A stretch of 31,600 bases of DNA. Source: an uncultured archaeon (lineage in GTDB: Archaea > Asgardarchaeota > Lokiarchaeia > Sigyniarchaeales > SOKP01). A program made the translations under genes and the position numbers. Under the pieces are notes generated by a model, which saw only the letters and a program-made list of their open reading frames with translations, was not told the DNA's origin and did not search any database. The stretch is taken from positions 1 through 31,600 of the forward strand of contig CAYLZE010000057.1 in the NCBI GenBank assembly GCA_964388035.1, written 5' to 3'. Shown here piece after piece: positions 8,079 through 21,840 of this stretch. Within the stretch, counting starts at the first letter, position 1; each line of letters opens with the position of its first letter.

Positions 8079-10850
8079 CTATTCGATTATGATAACTTCT
8101 GTTTTATTTTTGATTTGTTCCTCGCTCTTAGCTTTTTCTAGAAAATACGGATCGATAATTTTTTCAATCTCTTTTAAATCGTAATGTCTGGGCTCGATTG
8201 CTTTTAACCTACATGTAGCAGCACATCGGCCGCATCCTTTGCATAATGCCGGATTAATAAATGCTTTTTTCGTAGGAATGCTGACCTCTTCATATTCTTG
8301 AGGAGTATCAAGAAGAGAAATAGCTTTGAATTGACAAATTTCTTGGCATCTTCCACATCCATTACATTTTTCCGTATTTACCTGCATTTCTTTCAAGGAA
8401 CATTCAATAGAAAGCAAGAAGGAGAGCATTTCTAACTTGGTCGTGGAAATCTCTTCCATCGTTAAAAATCTACTTGCTCTGCCTGCTGCTGCCTTAGCTT
8501 CTACAATGGAATCCTGAACGTTCTTTGGCCATTGTGCACAACCACAAATGAAGATACCTTCTGTAGAAAAATCTAACGGTCTCATTTTCTTATGAGCTCC
8601 AATAAAAAATCCATTTATATCCAATGGGATCTTTAGCATGAAAGCCAAATCTTGGAGGTCATCAGGAGGGATTAGTGGCGTAGATAATATGACAAGATCC
8701 GTTTTAACATGTATATCTTTACTGGAATCCTGGAGATCTCGTAACGTAATTTCATATTGCTCGGGATTTTCCTTTATTTTTGTAACTTGGGGGATATTTT
8801 CCAAATTGTACTTTAAATAAGTTGCTACTTTTTTTCTTTCAGATGCAAATGCTTCAAACTCTTTTTTCGCCATGTGAAGGTCCCTAAAAAGAACCAGGGT
8901 CTCAAGTTCTGGTTTTATCTTTTTTAAGATATTTATATTTTTAAGGGTATTACTACAACATATATTAGAACAATAAGAGAAACCTCCTTTTTGTCTTGCA
9001 TTTACACACATGATGGTAGTGACATGGTCAATATTATCAAGCCAAGAGTTTGATTCATTTTTTAATAGATTTTCTAACTCTAATTGGGTAATAACTCGCT
9101 TATTCCTTTCATCATACTGAAATAATCCATGAGGTATATATTCTTGGCTTCCGGTGGCTATTATAATGACTCCTGCTTTTAATACATTGACATTTTCATT
9201 GGAATCTATCATGGAGATATTATAATTACCAATGGTGCCAGATATCTCTTTAATCTTAGAATTTGTGAAAATTTGAATATATTTATTGTTATTAACTTTA
9301 TCCACAATTTCATGTAAAAGAACTGAGGCTTTGTGCTGGATGGGATATAAAACATTGATATAATTTAAGATACCGCCCAATTGATTTTCTTTTTCAACAA
9401 TATACGTATTAAAACCTTGATCACTAATGGATAATGCTGCGGTCATTCCGGAAATTCCGCCCCCAATTATTAACGCGGTAGGATTAATGCGTATTATTTC
9501 TTTTTCTGGTAAAATATCCACTTCTTTATCTCTTGTCAAGGAATATCTTGCAGACTTTAAAGCGGTTGCTACTTGAGAAGCCACTCCACTGGCATCAGCC
9601 ACTGTTTCCGTAATATTCATTGGCCCATGACAAAATCCACATAAAAAAATACCTTCCCGGGCGGAGGCGGATTTATTGAAGTACGATTGCTCCTTGAAAA
9701 AACCAAAATCATCTAAATCTATATCCAAAACATTGGAAAGTTCTTTAGTTCCCTTGGAAGGCACCAAAGGCGCTGCTAAAACTGCGAGACTAGTCCTAAA
9801 AATATTATTAATTTCTTTTGTTTTTAGATCGTCATAATAAATAAGAATATCCTTTGTTTTCGGATCCTCTTCAATTTTATTAATTTTCGAATGATAATAC
9901 TGAATTCCATGCATCTCGCTAGCTTCTTTAGTATATTCATAGAAATTTCTGCCAAACACTCTAATATGATGTCGAAAAACAGCAACTTGAACACTGGGCA
10001 GGTATTCATGAGCTAAAATACCATTTTTGGTGGTGTACATACAACATACTCGTGAGCAATAAGCTGTATCGTTTTCTAAATACCCCGAGCTTGCGCAATG
10101 AATAAACGCAATTTTTTCTGGTTCTTTCTCGTCGCTTGGACGCAGTATTTTCATTCCAAAAGGTCCCGTAGGACATAGCATTCGCTCAAATTCTAAAGCA
10201 TTCACAACGTTTTTATATTCATATCCCCATTTCGGTGCTAATTCTGTACTTAGCATGTCAAATCCCGTGGCTATTATTATAGCTCCTACTTTAATCTTAG
10301 TCTCTTGTGGTTTTTGTTCAAAATTAATAGCTTGTGCTTTGCATATTTTCTGACAGACGCCGCACACGCCTCTATTTAAATAAAGACATAAATTAGCATC
10401 AATCAAATATACGGGAGGAGTTGCTTGGGGAAAGGGAATATAAATTGATTTTCTTTTGCCTAAATTCATGTCAAAGATGTTAGGAGCTTCAACCTTAGGA
10501 CATTTCCTCGCACAATCTCCACATCCACGGCATTTTGTCTCATCTACATATCGAGGATTCTTTTTGATGGTAATAGAAAAATTTCCTAATTCTCCATTAA
10601 CTTTTGTGATTTCTGATAAAGTTAATAATTCTATATTGGGATTTTTATAAACTCCAATCATTTTGGGAGCAAGCGAGCATAAAGAACAATTCATATCAGG
10701 AAATAATTTGTCAAATTGAGCCATCCTCCCTCCTATTGAGGGTTCTCTTTCCACTAAATACACTTTATATCCTAATTCCGTTAAATCTAACGACGCTTGA
10801 ATGCCTCCAATTCCACCACCTATAACTAAAACAGACCCTTCCATAACCAT
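8079..10850 (-). CDS. hdrA: HdrA-like flavoprotein with two FAD modules (923 aa), lacking the internal HdrA N-terminal-type Fe-S domain
   Basis: Two GGGIxG dinucleotide-binding motifs, CRGCGDCARKCP and C-terminal 2x CxxCxxCxxxC. Close paralog of 11844..14933. Confidence 0.88.
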   Translation of the reverse strand: MVMEGSVLVIGGGIGGIQASLDLTELGYKVYLVEREPSIGGRMAQFDKLFPDMNCSLCSLAPKMIGVYKNPNIELLTLSEITKVNGELGNFSITIKKNPRYVDETKCRGCGDCARKCPKVEAPNIFDMNLGKRKSIYIPFPQATPPVYLIDANLCLYLNRGVCGVCQKICKAQAINFEQKPQETKIKVGAIIIATGFDMLSTELAPKWGYEYKNVVNALEFERMLCPTGPFGMKILRPSDEKEPEKIAFIHCASSGYLENDTAYCSRVCCMYTTKNGILAHEYLPSVQVAVFRHHIRVFGRNFYEYTKEASEMHGIQYYHSKINKIEEDPKTKDILIYYDDLKTKEINNIFRTSLAVLAAPLVPSKGTKELSNVLDIDLDDFGFFKEQSYFNKSASAREGIFLCGFCHGPMNITETVADASGVASQVATALKSARYSLTRDKEVDILPEKEIIRINPTALIIGGGISGMTAALSISDQGFNTYIVEKENQLGGILNYINVLYPIQHKASVLLHEIVDKVNNNKYIQIFTNSKIKEISGTIGNYNISMIDSNENVNVLKAGVIIIATGSQEYIPHGLFQYDERNKRVITQLELENLLKNESNSWLDNIDHVTTIMCVNARQKGGFSYCSNICCSNTLKNINILKKIKPELETLVLFRDLHMAKKEFEAFASERKKVATYLKYNLENIPQVTKIKENPEQYEITLRDLQDSSKDIHVKTDLVILSTPLIPPDDLQDLAFMLKIPLDINGFFIGAHKKMRPLDFSTEGIFICGCAQWPKNVQDSIVEAKAAAGRASRFLTMEEISTTKLEMLSFLLSIECSLKEMQVNTEKCNGCGRCQEICQFKAISLLDTPQEYEEVSIPTKKAFINPALCKGCGRCAATCRLKAIEPRHYDLKEIEKIIDPYFLEKAKSEEQIKNKTEVIIIE

Positions 10851-11843: not shown

Positions 11844-14800
11844 TCATTCCTCCAATAGATATGCTTCAATCATCTCGTAAATTTGATCGAAATCATAATG
11901 CTTAACGGAGATTGCTCCATTCGGGCATGTCGCGGCACACGTTCCACAACCTTTGCATAAGGCGCTATTGATAAAAGATTTTTTTAGAACAAGATTCACA
12001 TCCTCAAATTCCATTAACGCCTCTTTAATTTCAATGGCATTGTATGGGCAAACAGACTTGCATTTTCCACAACCTATACATCTTGAAGGTATTACTTCCG
12101 CTATTAATCCAGAAGTTTTAATCGTTTTGGCACTCAAAAATCTACTTGCCCGTCCAGCGGCGCCGTTCGCTTGCGAAATCGAATCTTGTATGTTTTTTGG
12201 CCATTGAGCACACCCCGCAAGAAAGATTCCATCCGTAGCAAAATCAAGAGGTCTCAATTTAACATGAGCTTCTAAAAAGAACCCGTTTTTATCAAGAGGT
12301 ACTTTTAACATTTTCGCTAATTCCGTGAGGTTATCCGCGGGGATCATGGGAGTAGATAAAATGATTGCATCCGTATCAAATTCGATTTGATCTTGTAAAT
12401 TTGTATCGAATACCTCAATTCTAAATCCACTCGTCTTATCCTTCTTTTTAGTAATTTTTGGTAGGTTATCCAAATCATATCTTAAAAACATGGCATCTCT
12501 TCTTCGATCTCGATAATATCTTTCAAATTCTTTTTTTGCCATTTGAATATCCCGATATAAAAGAATAATCTCTAAATCAGGCTTTAATTCTTTAAGGATG
12601 CCAATATTTTTTATGCTCACACCACAACACACGTTAGAACAATAGGTAATTCCTTCTGGTTGACGAGCATTCACACATAAAATCATGGTAATCCGTTTTA
12701 TCTCATCTAACCAAGAGAGATCTTTATTTTTTAATCTCTGTTCGAGCTCTAACTGTGTTAAGACATTTTTACTCTCGGGTTTATATTGAAATAATCCTTC
12801 AGGCTTAAACTCTTGGGCACCTGTAGCCACGATAATTGTACCTACTGCTTTTTCGTGAGGATTTTGTTTTGAATCGAGTATTGTTACTTTGTAGTTTCCT
12901 ATATATCCTTTAATATCTTGGAGTTTGGAAGTTAAAAATAACTCAATGTTATTGTTTTTTTCGACTTTATTTTTTATATCGTTTAAAATAATAGATGCAT
13001 CTTGTTGGATGGGATATAAAATATTAAGATTTTTCAAGTTTCCTCCTAATTCATTTTCTTTTTCAACCAGAAACACTTTAAATCCTTGATTAGCAATGTT
13101 TAACGCTGCAGTCATCCCGGAGATACCACCCCCTATTATTAACGTGGTAGGAATGATATCTAATTTTTCTTCCTTAAGTGGTTTTAACAATCGGGATTTT
13201 GCAACTGCCATCCTAATTAAGTCTTTAGCTTTATCCGTTGCAGCTTTATTATCTCCCATGTGAACCCAAGAGCATTGATCTCGAATATTTACCATTTCAA
13301 ATAAATATTTATTCAGGCCTGCCTCTTCACAAGTTTCTTGAAACAAGGATTCATGAGTTCTTGGCGTACAAGAGGCAACAATAAATCTATTCATTTTATA
13401 TTCCTCTATCATTTGCTTTATCCTTGCTTGTGAATCACTGGAACAACTATAAAGATTAGCTTCGCAATGAACTACAAACGGTAGCTTATTCACATATTCA
13501 ACCACGGTCGAAACATCCACGTATTTTCCGATATTAATTCCACAATGACACACAAGCACTCCAATCCTTGGTTGATCAGAGATTTTTACCTCAATCTCTG
13601 GGACCGTGAATATTTTTTCTTTAACTTGAGTATACTTAACAGAATTTAATAAATTAGCCACTTGAGAGGCTACCCCACTAGCATCTGCCACCGTTTCCGG
13701 TATGTCCATTGGTCCTTGGCAAAACCCGCATAGAAATATACCTTCCTTCGTTGCTACTGACTTATTAAAATAATCTTTTTCTTGGAAAAAATCATATCCA
13801 TCTAATTTTACATCTAAGATTCTTGCCAATTCCTTAACACCTTCAGAAGGTACCAACGGTGTGGCGAGTACGACCAAATTTGCTTCAAAATCATTAAATT
13901 CCCCCGTTTTAAGATCTTCATAATGGATGATTAAATCCTTAGTCTCGGGATTTTCTTCTATAGTACTTATTTTGGTTTGAAAATATTTAACGCCATACTC
14001 TTCCTGAGCTCTTGTAGTAAATTCATAAAAATTTTTCCCATACGCTCTTATATCATGTCGAAATACAAAACATTTCGACTTTTCAGAGTGTTCTTTTGTT
14101 ATTATGGCTTCTTTTGCTGTATACATGCAACACACGCTGGAACAATACGGCACCCCTTCGTGTAAATCCCTTGAACCTGCACATTGAACGAAGGCAATTT
14201 TTTTAGGTTCTTCCTGATCGCTCGGACGGAGCACATGTCCTCCAAAAGGACCCGAAGCACATAAGATTCTTTCATATTCCAAGGCACTCACCACGTTCTC
14301 GTGGCGATATCCCCACCTTGAAGATAATTTCTCCGCTGGCATGTCAAATCCAGTGGCAACCACTATGGCTCCTACTTTAATTTCAATATCCTTGGCTTTT
14401 TGTTCATAGTTTATGGCTTCTGCCTTGCATACTTTTTGACAAACACCGCATACTCCTTTTGTTAATTTCAAGCAAAGTTCAGGATCAATTAAGTAAATGG
14501 GCGGTACAGCTTGAGGAAAAGGAATATAAATTGATTTTCGTTTTCCCAAATTCATATCAAAAAGATTAGGTACTTCAATCTTAGGACACTTCGCTGCACA
14601 ATCACCACAACCCTTGCACTTTGTTTCGTCTATATAACGAGGCTTTTTTGTTACTATAACAGTAAAATTCCCAGGTCCTCCCGATACATTTTTCACTTCA
14701 TGATACGTCATTAGTTCTATATTCGGATTTCTAAAGACCTCAACCATCTTAGGTGCTAAAATACAGAGACTACAATCATTCGTAGGAAAAGTTTTATCCA

Positions 14801-14933
14801 GCTGGGACATTCGACCTCCAATGGAGGGGGTTTTTTCTACTAAATAGACTTTAAATCCAAGCTCTGTTAGATCTAATGAAGTTTGAATTCCAGCGATTCC
14901 CCCACCAATAACTAAGACCGAACCCTCCATCAT
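11844..14933 (-). CDS. hdrA: Large HdrA-like flavoprotein with two FAD modules (1029 aa), cysteine form
   Basis: GGGIAG, DKTFPTNDCSLC, inserted ferredoxin, QCAGSRD...YCSSVCC, internal VCHCGINI...SCTPRTHE...NIRDQCSW domain, second GGGISG and C-terminal 2x[4Fe-4S]. The start overlaps the upstream stop (TAATG). Confidence 0.93.
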   Translation of the reverse strand: MMEGSVLVIGGGIAGIQTSLDLTELGFKVYLVEKTPSIGGRMSQLDKTFPTNDCSLCILAPKMVEVFRNPNIELMTYHEVKNVSGGPGNFTVIVTKKPRYIDETKCKGCGDCAAKCPKIEVPNLFDMNLGKRKSIYIPFPQAVPPIYLIDPELCLKLTKGVCGVCQKVCKAEAINYEQKAKDIEIKVGAIVVATGFDMPAEKLSSRWGYRHENVVSALEYERILCASGPFGGHVLRPSDQEEPKKIAFVQCAGSRDLHEGVPYCSSVCCMYTAKEAIITKEHSEKSKCFVFRHDIRAYGKNFYEFTTRAQEEYGVKYFQTKISTIEENPETKDLIIHYEDLKTGEFNDFEANLVVLATPLVPSEGVKELARILDVKLDGYDFFQEKDYFNKSVATKEGIFLCGFCQGPMDIPETVADASGVASQVANLLNSVKYTQVKEKIFTVPEIEVKISDQPRIGVLVCHCGINIGKYVDVSTVVEYVNKLPFVVHCEANLYSCSSDSQARIKQMIEEYKMNRFIVASCTPRTHESLFQETCEEAGLNKYLFEMVNIRDQCSWVHMGDNKAATDKAKDLIRMAVAKSRLLKPLKEEKLDIIPTTLIIGGGISGMTAALNIANQGFKVFLVEKENELGGNLKNLNILYPIQQDASIILNDIKNKVEKNNNIELFLTSKLQDIKGYIGNYKVTILDSKQNPHEKAVGTIIVATGAQEFKPEGLFQYKPESKNVLTQLELEQRLKNKDLSWLDEIKRITMILCVNARQPEGITYCSNVCCGVSIKNIGILKELKPDLEIILLYRDIQMAKKEFERYYRDRRRDAMFLRYDLDNLPKITKKKDKTSGFRIEVFDTNLQDQIEFDTDAIILSTPMIPADNLTELAKMLKVPLDKNGFFLEAHVKLRPLDFATDGIFLAGCAQWPKNIQDSISQANGAAGRASRFLSAKTIKTSGLIAEVIPSRCIGCGKCKSVCPYNAIEIKEALMEFEDVNLVLKKSFINSALCKGCGTCAATCPNGAISVKHYDFDQIYEMIEAYLLEE

Positions 14934-17351: not shown

Positions 17352-18860
17352 TTATTTTTCTTCCTTTGGGGCATTTAATTGAACAGGTTTACATTTACTT
17401 CTTTTACTCCCACCAATTCTTTCAACCAAAAATAGCCCTGGTTTCACGTCTTTTAATTTTTTAGACTCCAATAAGCCCGCTTTTTCAGCATTTTTAAAGA
17501 TTTCCAAGCACTCTTCGGAACGAATCACCACGGATGACCATCCAGCTTGAGACCCGATGGAGCCAACTGAAAAATCGCTGAAATCAGAAGTCAAGTCTTC
17601 ACAGAAATGACAAGTATTGCGGGCATAAGATTGAACTTCTTTCAAAGGAACATCTAATTCTTCTCCATTTTTCAAATTTATGATGAATTTTCCCGAATCA
17701 ATATTCATTTTGGTTAGGTCATTGATATCTTTTTTGAATTTCTCACTTATCAATTTTTTAGTATCGTCATAGGAAAATGACTCCATGCAAAATAAACCAA
17801 TCCTATATTTAATATTCTTGAAAAAAGGAAGCCCGCTTGGAAATAACGTGGCTTTATACAGAGCCTTCATCATGCAAGGAACACCTACAACAGCGATCCT
17901 ATCATACTTTTTGGCTTGATCGATAATGCCCAAAGTGGGGGCATTTGCATATTTAGTTCCTGCCGTTTTATATAAATCCTTCACGCTTTCAACGATCACG
18001 GGTTCAGGTTTCCAAAGATCTTTAGAATGCTGAACGGCAATAATCGCATCAACCAAGTCATTTTCCAAGAGATATTGTAGGAGTGTAGTAACCACCCCTC
18101 CATCCTGGCGAACCTTCTTAATATCATCAATTTTTGTGCTTGCCGTAAAAGTTTCTACGTAAGCACCAATTTTATCGGAAAATTTTAAATTTTTATCAAT
18201 TTTCTTAATAGCCGCATAAGCCCTATCAATAGAAAAGGAGCGTGGGCACACCGAAAAACAGAGACCACATTTTATGCAGACTTCTTTATCAATTTCGAGG
18301 GTATCTGCTGAAACTGTAATGGCATCCAACGGACAAACCGAAGAGCACCATCCACAATTACAACATACCCCAGAATCAAACACGATGGTTACTGGTTCAA
18401 AAAAATGTTCCTTGAAATTTGGGGATAACACTTTTGCTTGGTATCGATAAAAATACTCCTTGACCTCAACTTCTTTTTCTTCATCCTTTATTTTTTTTAT
18501 TTCCGTGTGAGTTTTAATTTCGACTTGTTCTTCAACATATCCTTGTTCTTTTAAATAAAAGATATCCCGAACCACGTTTTCTGGAGGTATGTCTTGAATT
18601 AACTTCACTACATCCTCTATAAACATTGGTTCTTTATTTGTCAACCGTTCAAGAACTAATGCGCGTTCGGTTTCCGCATCTATCATGGAATCTAAAATAT
18701 CATAAAATTCTTGCTCGGAAAATTTTCCATGTTCTATAATCTCTTCTTTTGCTTCAAAAAATGCCCTCACTTGAAAATTTTCGATTGCCTTGTAAGTAGC
18801 TTCCATCAACTCCTTTGGAGCGCTATTATTTAAATCAACTTTTTTTATTGTTTGAACCAT
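17352..18860 (-). CDS. FrhB/FdhB family F420-binding subunit with ~155-aa N-terminal extension
   Basis: CCNCGWCSSVCP, CIKCGLCFSVCP, QDGGVVT, AGTKY, VGVPC, IGLFCMESF, CHFCED and SVGSIGS. Confidence 0.92.
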   Translation of the reverse strand: MVQTIKKVDLNNSAPKELMEATYKAIENFQVRAFFEAKEEIIEHGKFSEQEFYDILDSMIDAETERALVLERLTNKEPMFIEDVVKLIQDIPPENVVRDIFYLKEQGYVEEQVEIKTHTEIKKIKDEEKEVEVKEYFYRYQAKVLSPNFKEHFFEPVTIVFDSGVCCNCGWCSSVCPLDAITVSADTLEIDKEVCIKCGLCFSVCPRSFSIDRAYAAIKKIDKNLKFSDKIGAYVETFTASTKIDDIKKVRQDGGVVTTLLQYLLENDLVDAIIAVQHSKDLWKPEPVIVESVKDLYKTAGTKYANAPTLGIIDQAKKYDRIAVVGVPCMMKALYKATLFPSGLPFFKNIKYRIGLFCMESFSYDDTKKLISEKFKKDINDLTKMNIDSGKFIINLKNGEELDVPLKEVQSYARNTCHFCEDLTSDFSDFSVGSIGSQAGWSSVVIRSEECLEIFKNAEKAGLLESKKLKDVKPGLFLVERIGGSKRSKCKPVQLNAPKEEK

Positions 18861-18919
18861 TCCGTTAAAACAACCTTTTCATTTTACTTTTTTTTATATT
18901 TAAATAAAAATGGTGATTT

Positions 18920-18993
18920 CTAACCCCAACCCTTGCTTGAGTTAGTTTTCTCGTAACTAAGATTTTTTTACAAGAATCATTCCACGGGGTTAG
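18920..18993 (-). promoter_or_regulatory. Candidate SECIS element (3' stem-loop immediately after the Sec-mvhD stop)
   Basis: mRNA CUAACCCC-GUGGAAUGAUUCUUGUAAAAAAAUCUUAGUUACGAGAAAACUAACUCAAGCAAGGGUU-GGGGUUAG. It has a perfect 8-bp closing helix, further internal helices, AUGA/GAA and an unpaired A-run. Its position fits a SECIS, but a canonical tandem G.A core is not cleanly formed. Confidence 0.6.
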
Positions 18994-19437
18994 TTAAACT
19001 TTGGCTTTTTTCTTTGTCGTGTTTTTTCCAGAAGATCTAAGAGGATTTATTCCTATCCGCTTGATTTTTTCGTAGGTATCTTCCACGCTCTTCACAAATT
19101 TCTCTCCTTCTGCACTGCTTAACCAATACATGTTAATTCTCTGATCTCCAAATCCTCTTCTGCTCAAGATACGATTGGCAAAATCGACGTGCTTTTGAGC
19201 GGTAAAATTGCCGTTCTTAAATTGGCATTCGTTGGGTCGTCATCCAACCACCATTACTCCATCAGCACCGGATTTTATTGCATAGATAATATGCTTTACA
19301 TCCACTCTACCCGTACACCTGACCTTTATAATGCGTACTGAAGGAGTATATTTTAACCGAGAGACGCCTGCTAAATCTGCAGCACCGTAACCTCATTTTA
19401 AACAGCAAAAAGCAATGATTTTAAAGTTGTTTTCCAT
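18994..19437 (-). CDS. mvhD: Selenoprotein MvhD/VhuD (147 aa, two Sec), absent from the ORF track
   Basis: Manual translation gives MENNFKIIAFCCLK-U-GYGAADLAGVSR...VRCTGRVD...GADGVMVVG-U-RPNECQFKNGN...YWLSSAEGEKF...KAKV*. TGA at 19393-19395 (codon 15) and 19240-19242 (codon 66) align to Cys of the paralog at 11379..11819. SD GGAGG, TAA stop. Confidence 0.93.
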
Positions 19438-19441
19438 TTGT

Positions 19442-21424
19442 TTAACCTCCTTCTATTAATCCGTCTAATTCGGCAAATAATTGATGATCCCGATAATATC
19501 GGATGTCAATTGCTTGCGTGGGACAGCATGTGGAACATATACCGCATCCAGTGCAATTCACTTCATCTACAGATGCTATCTCATTCTCATTTACTCGAAT
19601 CGCCCCTTGGGGACATTCTCGTTGACATCGCCGACAACCAATGCATAAATCAGGATCCACTTCTGCAATAATCATCTCTAAATCCACCTTGCCAGGGGCG
19701 GTTAATTCCGCTACTTTACTGGCAGCCGCACGAGCTTGAGAGACAGAATATGCTATATCCTTGGGACCTTGTGCAAATCCTGCTATGAAAATACCCTTCG
19801 TTTTAGTTTCTTGTGGCATGAGACCGAAATGGGATTCCGTTAAAAATCCATATTGATCCTTATCAAGATTTAATACTTTGGCGATTTGTTCCGTTCCCTT
19901 CGAAGGTAATGCAGCAGAGGATAATACCACGAGATCCGCATCAATATTGATTATTTCATCGGTTAAAGACGAATATACTCGAACCTTGATGTTTTTTGTT
20001 TTAGGATCTTCTTTCAATTCTCCCACTTTGCCCCGTATCATGCGAATATCGGAATCCTTGGCTCTTTGATAATATTCTTCAAAACCTTTTTCACTCGTTC
20101 GAATATCGATGTAGCAAATAGTGATTTTAGCATTAGGAAATTCCTCTTTCAAAAGTTTTGCATTTTTCAACGCAAGCATGCAGCACACGCCACTACAATA
20201 GGTTCTTTCAGTTTCCCTGGATCCCACGCATTGAATGAATACAATTTCTTCCGGTTTCTTATTATCGGATATGCGGTGGATATGGCCTTCCAACGGCCCA
20301 TTAGGAGCAAGGATCCGCTCTAATTGGGATTGTGTAATAACATTTTCAAACTCACCATATCCATACTCACCGTAGGGTTCATAAATGTCCCAACCCGTTG
20401 CAACTATGATGGATCCAACTTTAAATGTAACTTCCTCCGGTTTTTGGCTGAAATCTATGGCATGTAACTCGCAAGCATCCACGCATGAAAAGCATTCCAC
20501 GCACGAAGTTCTTTGGATATCATATAAGAAGGGGACGGCTTGACCAAAGGCAATGTCTATAGCTTTTCGAGCACCTAAATTTTCATCGAAGAAATTGGAG
20601 GTATACACGGGACACACTTCTGAGCAAGCACCACATCCATTACATAGATCAGTATTGATGTATCTTGGTTTCTTTTCCACGGTGACTTCATAATTGCCCA
20701 CGTATCCTTCCACTTTTTTCACTTCACTATAGCTAAACAGTTGAATATTCTCATTCCGATTGACGTCTAACATTTTGGGCCCACAGATTCAAATTGCACA
20801 ATCATCCGTGGGAAAGGTCCGATCTAATTGCGCCATTCTGCCTCCGATGGTAGTTCTGCTTTCCACCAAGTAAACTTTAATTCCTTCATTCGCAAGATCC
20901 AAGGCAGCATTCATCCCGGCAATGCCTCCACCGACGACTAAAGTTGCTTTTTCCACGGGAAAGGTCTTGACGGGTACCACGTCCAATAATCGCGCTCTTT
21001 CTATTCCCCCTTTTAATAGAATTTTAGCTTTTTCGGTAGCTTCTTCTTTTTCTTGGGTGACCCAACTGCAGTGCTCTCGCACATTTATCATCTGAAAATA
21101 GTAGGGATTTAATCCTGCTTTTGCAATCGAGCCGCGATAGATGGGTTCGTGGGTTCTTGGGGTTCAAGCAGACGCAATAATGCGATCTAAATTTTTCTCC
21201 TTGATATTTTGCATGATCTCATTCTGCCCCGATTCAGTACAAAGGAACGAATGTGTTTTAGCAACGACAATATCATCAAAAGTTTTCGCATATTCAACGA
21301 GTTTATCACAGTCGACTTTAGATTTAATGTTAATTCCTCACTGACAAGCAAAAAAGCCCATTCGCAGTTTTTCTTCGCTTCTTTTTCCTTGACTGGGTTT
21401 ATCTTCCATCTTTTTTTTCTCCAT
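19442..21424 (-). CDS. hdrA: Selenoprotein heterodisulfide reductase subunit A (660 aa, three Sec)
   Basis: One continuous frame from ATG 21424 (or 21409) to TAA 19442 with TGA at 21338-21340 (FACQ-U-GINI), 21164-21166 (IASA-U-TPRTHE) and 20789-20791 (FPTDDCAI-U-ICGPKM). It joins ORF-track pieces 20789..21091 and 19442..20773 into a canonical-length HdrA. Confidence 0.93.
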
Positions 21425-21840
21425 TCACCTCTAATTTACTAATATAACCTAATATAATTTTTTAATAAGTTTTTCAGATCTTTTAACTATAATCTGATTC
21501 TAGTTTAAATCAAATTTCGAAAAGTTTTATTCTTTTTCATTTAGAATGATAATTATTATATAAATTTTAATGATAATTCTATTTATACTTAACTAACTAT
21601 CTTAATAAGTCAAATCCGAAAATACAATTAACAATTTTAGTAATTTTATTACATCTCGATAATTTTAGATAAAAAAGTGGGCGAAAGAAATTAAAATTAG
21701 TATTCCACTATCAATAAAATAGATTTTTTATGAGATTTATATTCTAATTCACCGTAAAATGATGGTTTTTAATATTTTCAGAGAAATTTTTTTATTTAAA
21801 ATCGAGGTTTCCAACCTTAATTTTATCTTTAAAAAGAATA

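Follow-up and report, generated by a model that had tools for sequence, protein, structure and literature searches.

Selenocysteine (Sec) forms of HdrA, the subunit A of soluble heterodisulfide reductase (Hdr), and of its partner VhuD have been reported in Lokiarchaeota (PMC4989117, PMC11227280). HdrA with multiple Sec, VhuD with two Sec, the tandem order of the genes and a shared Sec insertion sequence (SECIS) were all published in these two studies. According to Mariotti et al. 2016, vhuD encodes a protein with two Sec and always lies directly downstream of hdrA, hdrA never ends in UGA, and a single element after vhuD, the lokiSECIS, serves up to six UGAs over ~2 kb (PMC4989117). Huang et al. 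2024 extended the survey to 227 Asgard genomes and reported an AUGA_AA core of the element for some hdrA/frhD genes (PMC11227280). In the Methanococcus maripaludis complex, the HdrA Sec was named Sec197 (PMC13518236). Here, we followed up the first-pass annotation of one hdrA-mvhD (vhuD) pair from an uncultured archaeon of the Sigyniarchaeales (assembly GCA_964388035.1). The pair lies at positions 18,994 to 21,424 of a 31,600-nucleotide (nt) stretch of contig CAYLZE010000057.1, hereafter the window. It is a further instance of the described Lokiarchaeal system and already known in kind; the annotation had itself pointed to reported Sec forms in Lokiarchaeota.

As in the Lokiarchaeota pairs, HdrA has ~660 amino acids (aa) and several Sec at conserved cysteine (Cys) positions, one of which is always the canonical site near residue 200. 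VhuD has ~150 aa and two Sec, and it is encoded directly downstream, on the same strand and after a very short gap. Also shared are an hdrA stop codon that is TAA or TAG and one SECIS after vhuD, with AUGA, a stem of 9 base pairs (bp) and an 11-nt loop of the form AAAAA...AG. Homology to Hdr-Vhu of M. maripaludis is full-length (693 bits for HdrA, 135 bits for VhuD), with Sec at the positions of U212, U15 and U66. However, the methanogen HdrA has one Sec, whereas the window HdrA has two more in its N-terminal iron-sulfur (Fe-S) domain. The methanogen also has a classical archaeal SECIS, in contrast to the kink-turn-like lokiSECIS of the window pair, and the Asgard host is not a methanogen. With eukaryotic type I SECIS elements, the lokiSECIS shares the 5' AUGA core, the unpaired adenosines opening the apical loop and the 3' untranslated location, but its upper stem is shorter (9 bp) and AA stands in place of the 3' GA. 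SBP2 is not known from these archaea (PMC4989117).

We conclude, with a probability of roughly 93%, that hdrA and mvhD are intact selenoprotein genes, in which five UGAs are read as Sec via a single lokiSECIS.

Reading frames and conservation of the UGA codons

The hdrA gene (19442-21424, minus strand) encodes an HdrA-type flavoprotein. When translated with TGA as Sec (U), it forms a single open frame of 660 codons, with no TAA or TAG inside and no frameshift. TGA is its only internal stop, and the gene ends in TAA. An alternative start at an ATG five codons further downstream is possible. Only 4 nt separate the hdrA stop from the start of mvhD/vhuD (18994-19437, minus strand), which encodes a delta subunit of the FlpD family. 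With TGA as Sec, mvhD is one frame of 147 codons, without internal TAA, TAG or frameshift, and it also ends in TAA. Our retranslation agreed with the first-pass annotation, which had placed the TGAs at hdrA codons 29, 87 and 212 and at mvhD codons 15 and 66, with no frameshift and a final TAA in both genes.

All five codons are in recognizable motifs on the minus strand. In hdrA, codon 29 (21338-21340) lies in the N-terminal Fe-S domain, in a C-x-U-G motif, codon 87 (21164-21166) in A-U-T-P-R, and codon 212 (20789-20791) in D-C-x-x-U, the canonical HdrA Sec site. In mvhD, codon 15 (19393-19395) belongs to C-x-x-U-G-Y-G and codon 66 (19240-19242) to G-U-R-P-N-E-C. Each TGA had been claimed to stand opposite a Cys of paralogs in the window, and all five motif pairs were recovered with U opposite Cys, a pattern not due to chance: CQUGINI/CHCGINI, SAUTPRTHE/ASCTPRTHE and DCAIU/DCSLC for hdrA, and CCLKU/CCNWC and VGUR/TGCH for mvhD.

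Calling of open reading frames with translation table 11 broke hdrA into fragments of 443, 100 and 54 aa and smaller ones, and left only a 57-aa tail of mvhD. The expectation that standard gene callers would fragment the first gene and miss the second was borne out by the public protein collection, where the 443-aa and 100-aa hdrA pieces are separate entries and a mvhD piece is absent.

At full length, the hdrA product has the N-terminal Fe-S domain, the FAD-binding thioredoxin-reductase fold, the inserted and the C-terminal ferredoxin domains of HdrA; the Pfam domains found were FAD/NAD-binding and Fer4. It matched the solved HdrA chains 9sfi_A, 5odc_A, 8rvu_a and 7bkb_A with 574-693 bits over residues 13-660 (phmmer), the best full-length matches being 9sfi_A (693 bits) and 5odc_A (671 bits). 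U212 aligned with X (Sec197) of 9sfi_A, from M. maripaludis, and with Cys197 of 5odc_A. NCBIfam HdrA2, a model of 777 positions, was matched over positions 1-640 with 781 bits. This is below its cut-off of 1100, since the model extends into a fused MvhD portion that a separate gene, the following one, encodes here. The predicted protein is HdrA.

The mvhD product matched positions 647-773 of the same fused model. It scored 156.4 bits against Pfam PF02662 (FlpD; gathering cut-off 22.3), 134.6 bits against M. maripaludis 9sfi_K, and 167.8 bits against NCBIfam VhuD, the last under an exception-level cut-off of 215. U15 and U66 each aligned with an X (Sec) of 9sfi_K. As judged from these alignments, the second gene is MvhD/VhuD, with the conserved Cys pattern kept and Sec at both U positions. 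Characterised MvhD/VhuD homologues carry a [2Fe-2S] cluster (PMC6019823).

The annotation had asked for an alternation of TGA and Cys in Asgard relatives. In 40 related genomes, most hdrA homologues with at least 44% identity had one to five in-frame TGAs and almost never other stops. Across 30 loci from related genomes, TGA was found within the proteins at columns 29, 62, 87, 212 and 311 of HdrA and 15 and 66 of VhuD, and the sole alternative residue at these columns was Cys. An ortholog scan with one genome per species then yielded 80 orthologous loci (74-82% identity), all from Promethearchaeota (Asgard) assemblies or archaeal bins; the counts given per site refer to the loci covering that site. 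TGA was present in 78/78 orthologues at U29, in 78/78 at U87 and in 80/80 at U212. Both VhuD sites, U15 and U66, had TGA in 77/77. The U87 column has Cys in paralogue groups at ~50% identity, and, among 29 homologues that are more distant, three have Cys at VhuD position 66. Thus, in the orthologues and many paralogues, the TGAs are either conserved or alternate with Cys.

The window HdrA differs from most orthologues in having three Sec (29, 87, 212) instead of four. The additional site is position 62, which has TGA in 55 orthologues and Cys in 23, as well as Cys in the window copy. Further HdrA TGAs, at 311, 314 or 627, are rare (positions 314 and 627: three and two orthologues, respectively). 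The published description of the Lokiarchaeota pairs gives five possible positions. The hdrA stop codon was TAA or TAG in 76/76 orthologues and never TGA, while vhuD ended in TGA in 53.

Selection downstream of the TGAs had been proposed as a further check. Among orthologues with at least 76% identity, the nonsynonymous rate (dN) was 0.08-0.17 in the hdrA segments that follow its second and third TGAs; for vhuD it was 0.06-0.30. Synonymous sites were saturated, even against a relative of the same genus. Ratios of dN to the synonymous rate (dS) were therefore not computable, and we report dN and saturation instead. Because dN is low while dS is saturated, the sequence downstream of each TGA is under strong purifying selection. 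The ortholog set shows the stability of the five-UGA, two-cistron arrangement.

The lokiSECIS element

Directly after mvhD, in its 3' region, we found a lokiSECIS (18920-18993, minus strand; fold z = -2.6), which adds to what the first-pass annotation had claimed. Its predicted fold is a three-way element, made of a lower helix, a main arm and a 3' side hairpin. The lower helix has 8 bp (18993-18986/18927-18920). The AUGA core (18980-18977) begins 13 nt past the mvhD TAA and lies directly 5' of the main stem (18976-18968/18956-18948), in which UUCUUGUAA and UUACGAGAA form 9/9 pairs. This stem carries an apical loop of 11 nt, AAAAAUCUUAG (18967-18957), which starts with the adenines AAAAA and ends in AG, i.e. 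in a G preceded by A. The 3' core AA (18947-18946) follows, and then the short side hairpin (18943-18928), with a GCAA-containing loop. All parts are on the minus strand, and their order in the RNA is AUGA, UUCUUGUAA, AAAAAUCUUAG, UUACGAGAA, AA.

The same geometry was found 3' of vhuD in 23 of 29 loci from related genomes. Under a strict pattern, it was present in 72/76 orthologues, and the other four deviated by a single nucleotide, in the loop or the spacer. The UGA within the AUGA of the SECIS doubles as the vhuD stop in 47 orthologues. Among 22 aligned elements, loop positions 3-5 were A in 22/22 and the last loop position was G in at least 90%. The stem covaries: all nine pairs varied on both sides across this set. 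The pair adjoining the core was usually non-standard (14/22). When 45 extended SECIS regions were aligned with MAFFT, RNAalifold recovered the main stem alone; the alignment was out of register 3' of the stem. In an Rfam scan of 18700-21700 with E up to 10, no SECIS family was hit and only chance matches to snoRNAs or sRNAs appeared, as expected, because the lokiSECIS is absent from Rfam.

Genome-wide, the lokiSECIS pattern had 17 matches, versus ~3 expected from shuffles. One match lies just 3' of each of the four TGA-containing mvhD genes, on contigs C4, C32, C45 and C57, the last being the contig of the window; C4, C32 and C45 also carry Sec-type hdrA-mvhD pairs. No pattern match was found near the ten Cys-type mvhD homologues of the genome. 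On C57, the only match is the one after mvhD. It lies 262, 415, 1811, 2186 and 2360 nt downstream of the five UGAs, and therefore the same element would have to serve all of them.

Other matches were located away from hdrA-mvhD (C6:94709, C9:15487, C9:106082, C81:2544, C90:1750 and others), and they presumably mark other selenoprotein genes. CCCC...GGGG(U)n and stretches resembling CCUUGCAAAGG stand at corresponding places of the SECIS region in the orthologues. A U5 tract (18906-18910, minus strand) is seen in the sequence just 3' of the window element, where many orthologues show GGGGUUUUU. This tract might be an archaeal terminator.

Selenocysteine machinery and alternative readings

The annotation had also made its reading dependent on Sec machinery in the genome, and tRNA-Sec, SelB, a PSTK-like kinase, SepSecS and SelD were all present (genome size 5.47 Mb, 96.7% complete). 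SepSecS scored 425 bits with TIGR03531 (cut-off 225). A SelB-like factor of 476 aa had 238.7 bits with TIGR00475 (cut-off 242) and 46.7 bits with PF21440 (aSelB_III). The PSTK-like kinase matched TIGR03574 best, with 153 bits, though under the cut-off of 290, and KTI12 with 126 bits. SelD (TIGR00476, 184 bits) itself has a Sec, in the motif G-U-S-C-K.

The best tRNA-Sec candidate, at C6:4052-4205 (plus strand), is ~430 nt upstream of SepSecS. Its anticodon, UCA, sits within a CUUCAAA loop, and its acceptor stem of 9 bp is followed by G-CCA. Two inserts, presumed to be introns, interrupt the gene, one in the D arm (30 nt) and one in the T loop (31 nt). Their in silico removal left a 93-nt RNA, which ARAGORN called tRNA-SeC(tca); its fold is 9/4, and it has a D stem of 7 bp and a D loop of 4 nt. 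The minimum-energy fold of this RNA is the same cloverleaf, and the discriminator is G73. Rfam did not find the tRNA-Sec in the genome at its default threshold, and the candidate surfaced only with E up to 10. ARAGORN returned seven tRNAs when introns were disallowed and 22 when they were permitted, with no tRNA-Sec in either set.

The predicted exon junctions match the intron-less genes of relatives. Seven relatives have an intron-less tRNA-Sec of 90 nt (G001, from the same genus, G002, G005, G014, G016, G020 and G022). The D-arm insert alone is found in G007 and G008, and both inserts in a further seven (G004, G006, G011, G012, G013, G017 and G024), of which G012 has a second, intron-less copy. 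The published Loki tRNA-Sec has a T-loop intron only (PMC4989117, PMC5330540). This variable intron content is a side observation that goes beyond the cited papers. Also on the side, 7 tRNAs, or 22 with introns, are few for a 5.5-Mb genome that is 97% complete, and it seems that most tRNA genes of this genome contain introns or escape detection for some other reason. ARAGORN further called a tRNA-Pyl(cta) with an intron (C7:54735-54839, minus strand). We rejected it, as there was no PylS match at the family cut-off (best 33 bits); it is probably a mis-called intron-bearing tRNA.

Several points weigh against Sec decoding of the pair through the lokiSECIS. The window element lacks the GA directly 3' of the stem and has AA instead. 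The 22 aligned elements were picked by a pattern already requiring pairing, so that their 91.9% of paired stem cells, versus 55% in shuffles and 39-47% with the 3' partner slid by 1-3 columns, is inflated. The genome bin has an estimated contamination of 7.3%, the PSTK and SelB matches are under the curated NCBIfam cut-offs, and the tRNA-Sec candidate had 25 bits against Rfam RF01852 (cut-off 47) before the inserts were removed. As to the core, AUGA_AA is an accepted lokiSECIS variant and not an exclusion, because it has been published for VhuU (PMC4989117) as well as for hdrA/frhD and is present in 12/72 orthologues, AUGA_GA being the commoner core. As to the pairing, the informative signal is the fixed geometry, with differing stem sequences, in the same place.

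Among the alternatives, partial or conditional decoding survives best, with a small probability. At low selenium, translation would stop at the early hdrA UGAs, or Cys would be inserted, and the UGAs would serve mainly as a selenium-dependent switch to Cys-type Hdr/MvhD paralogs. A Cys-type mvhD and HdrA-like genes do occur on the same strand, a few kb further downstream, and Methanococcus swaps Sec and Cys isoenzymes (Vhu/Vhc) with selenium supply (PMC13518236). Such a switch is compatible with Sec decoding of the pair, rather than opposed to it.

A reassigned code, with TGA as a sense codon (e.g. for Trp, Gly or Cys) throughout the organism and without SECIS-dependent recoding, is very improbable. 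It could account for the presence of more than one in-frame TGA within a single operon, and for the many TGA-containing hdrA genes in relatives. Yet TGA is the stop codon of 4/20 other window genes, at the expected protein ends, and internal TGA outside the pair is confined to two frames in the window, both antisense to real genes; on these grounds, a genome-wide reassignment is excluded. Moreover, TGA aligns with Cys or Sec only, and the Sec pathway is complete and accompanied by a gene-specific SECIS. Least probable of all, and close to negligible, is that the two genes are decaying pseudogenes with nonsense mutations: gene calling fragments both and Cys-type paralogs in the window could make them dispensable, but the conservation pattern excludes decay, since every one of the five stops is a TGA in a Cys column, frameshifts, TAA and TAG are absent, 77-80 orthologues of other genomes retain the same TGAs, downstream dN is low and the SECIS is conserved. 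The preference of the annotation for Sec over decay thus held, on the strength of the orthologues, the low dN, the SECIS and the machinery.

Given the observed gene structure, conservation, SECIS and machinery, we infer Sec insertion at the five UGAs and a shared transcript. The two genes are probably carried on one bicistronic mRNA, on which archaeal SelB would deliver Sec-tRNA(Sec) to the five UGAs. The single eukaryote-like lokiSECIS would direct the recoding of UGAs 262 to 2360 nt upstream. The products would be a flavin- and Fe-S-containing HdrA and a [2Fe-2S] partner, VhuD, in a flavin-based electron-bifurcating Hdr-type complex.

Sec positions, the N-terminal cluster and the gene neighborhood

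The Sec residues would replace conserved redox or cluster-binding cysteines. In a crystal structure, the [4Fe-4S] cluster of the HdrA N-terminal domain is bound by cysteines of that domain and by Cys197 of the other protomer (PMC9012536). U212 is the Cys197 equivalent in an alignment of five solved HdrA sequences. In these five, positions 27, 29, 62, 87, 209 and 212 are all Cys, save for Sec at 212 in 9sfi, and Cys is thus invariant in the columns of U29 and U87. The window HdrA has C, U, C, U, C and U at the six positions. The invariant N-terminal Cys of the solved proteins are only four (27, 29, 62, 87), and the three other ligands must come from them. It follows that at least one of U29 and U87 should bind the same cluster as U212. 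By the same count, at least two of positions 29, 62 and 87 should be ligands in the four-Sec orthologues.

Tentatively, and with somewhat less than even odds, the HdrA Sec may therefore converge on one N-terminal [4Fe-4S] cluster, which would have two or three selenolates as ligands in the window HdrA, and three or four in most orthologues, where position 62 is Sec as well. Before the structure was available, Mariotti et al. 2016 described the Sec sites as not being ligands of clusters (PMC4989117). A convergence of the HdrA Sec on a single Fe-S cluster would go beyond the cited papers. In a weak hhalign match (probability 13.5%, E = 0.002), HdrA positions 29, 62 and 87 were paired with VhuD positions 15, 41 and 66, which suggests that the VhuD Sec pair may occupy equivalent positions of a related cluster-binding pattern. 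BLASTP gave no match between the HdrA N-terminal domain and MvhD.

Downstream of the pair, on the same strand, are two FrhB-like genes and an HdrB/C-like gene with a CCG domain. Further downstream, also on the same strand, follow a gene for a double HdrA-like protein of 1029 aa, the Cys-type mvhD and a gene for a second double HdrA-like protein, of 923 aa. In the fused 1029-aa protein (11844-14933, minus strand), the CxxC motif with the Cys197 equivalent is in the first half, which is without the N-terminal Fe-S domain; that domain (C-x-C-G, ASCTPRTHE) is in the second half, where CxxC is missing. The same complementary pattern, in the opposite order, is known from fused HdrA of anaerobic methanotrophic (ANME) archaea (PMC9012536). 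In the 923-aa protein (8079-10850, minus strand), CxxC is in the first half, and no N-terminal Fe-S domain was seen in the second half in the alignment.

With hdrA fragmented and mvhD missing in the public gene calls of this genome, a metabolic reconstruction would overlook an intact Hdr-type module. The locus adds one more instance to a published peculiarity of the Asgard archaea, a eukaryote-like SECIS that would recode five UGAs up to 2.4 kb away, across two cistrons.

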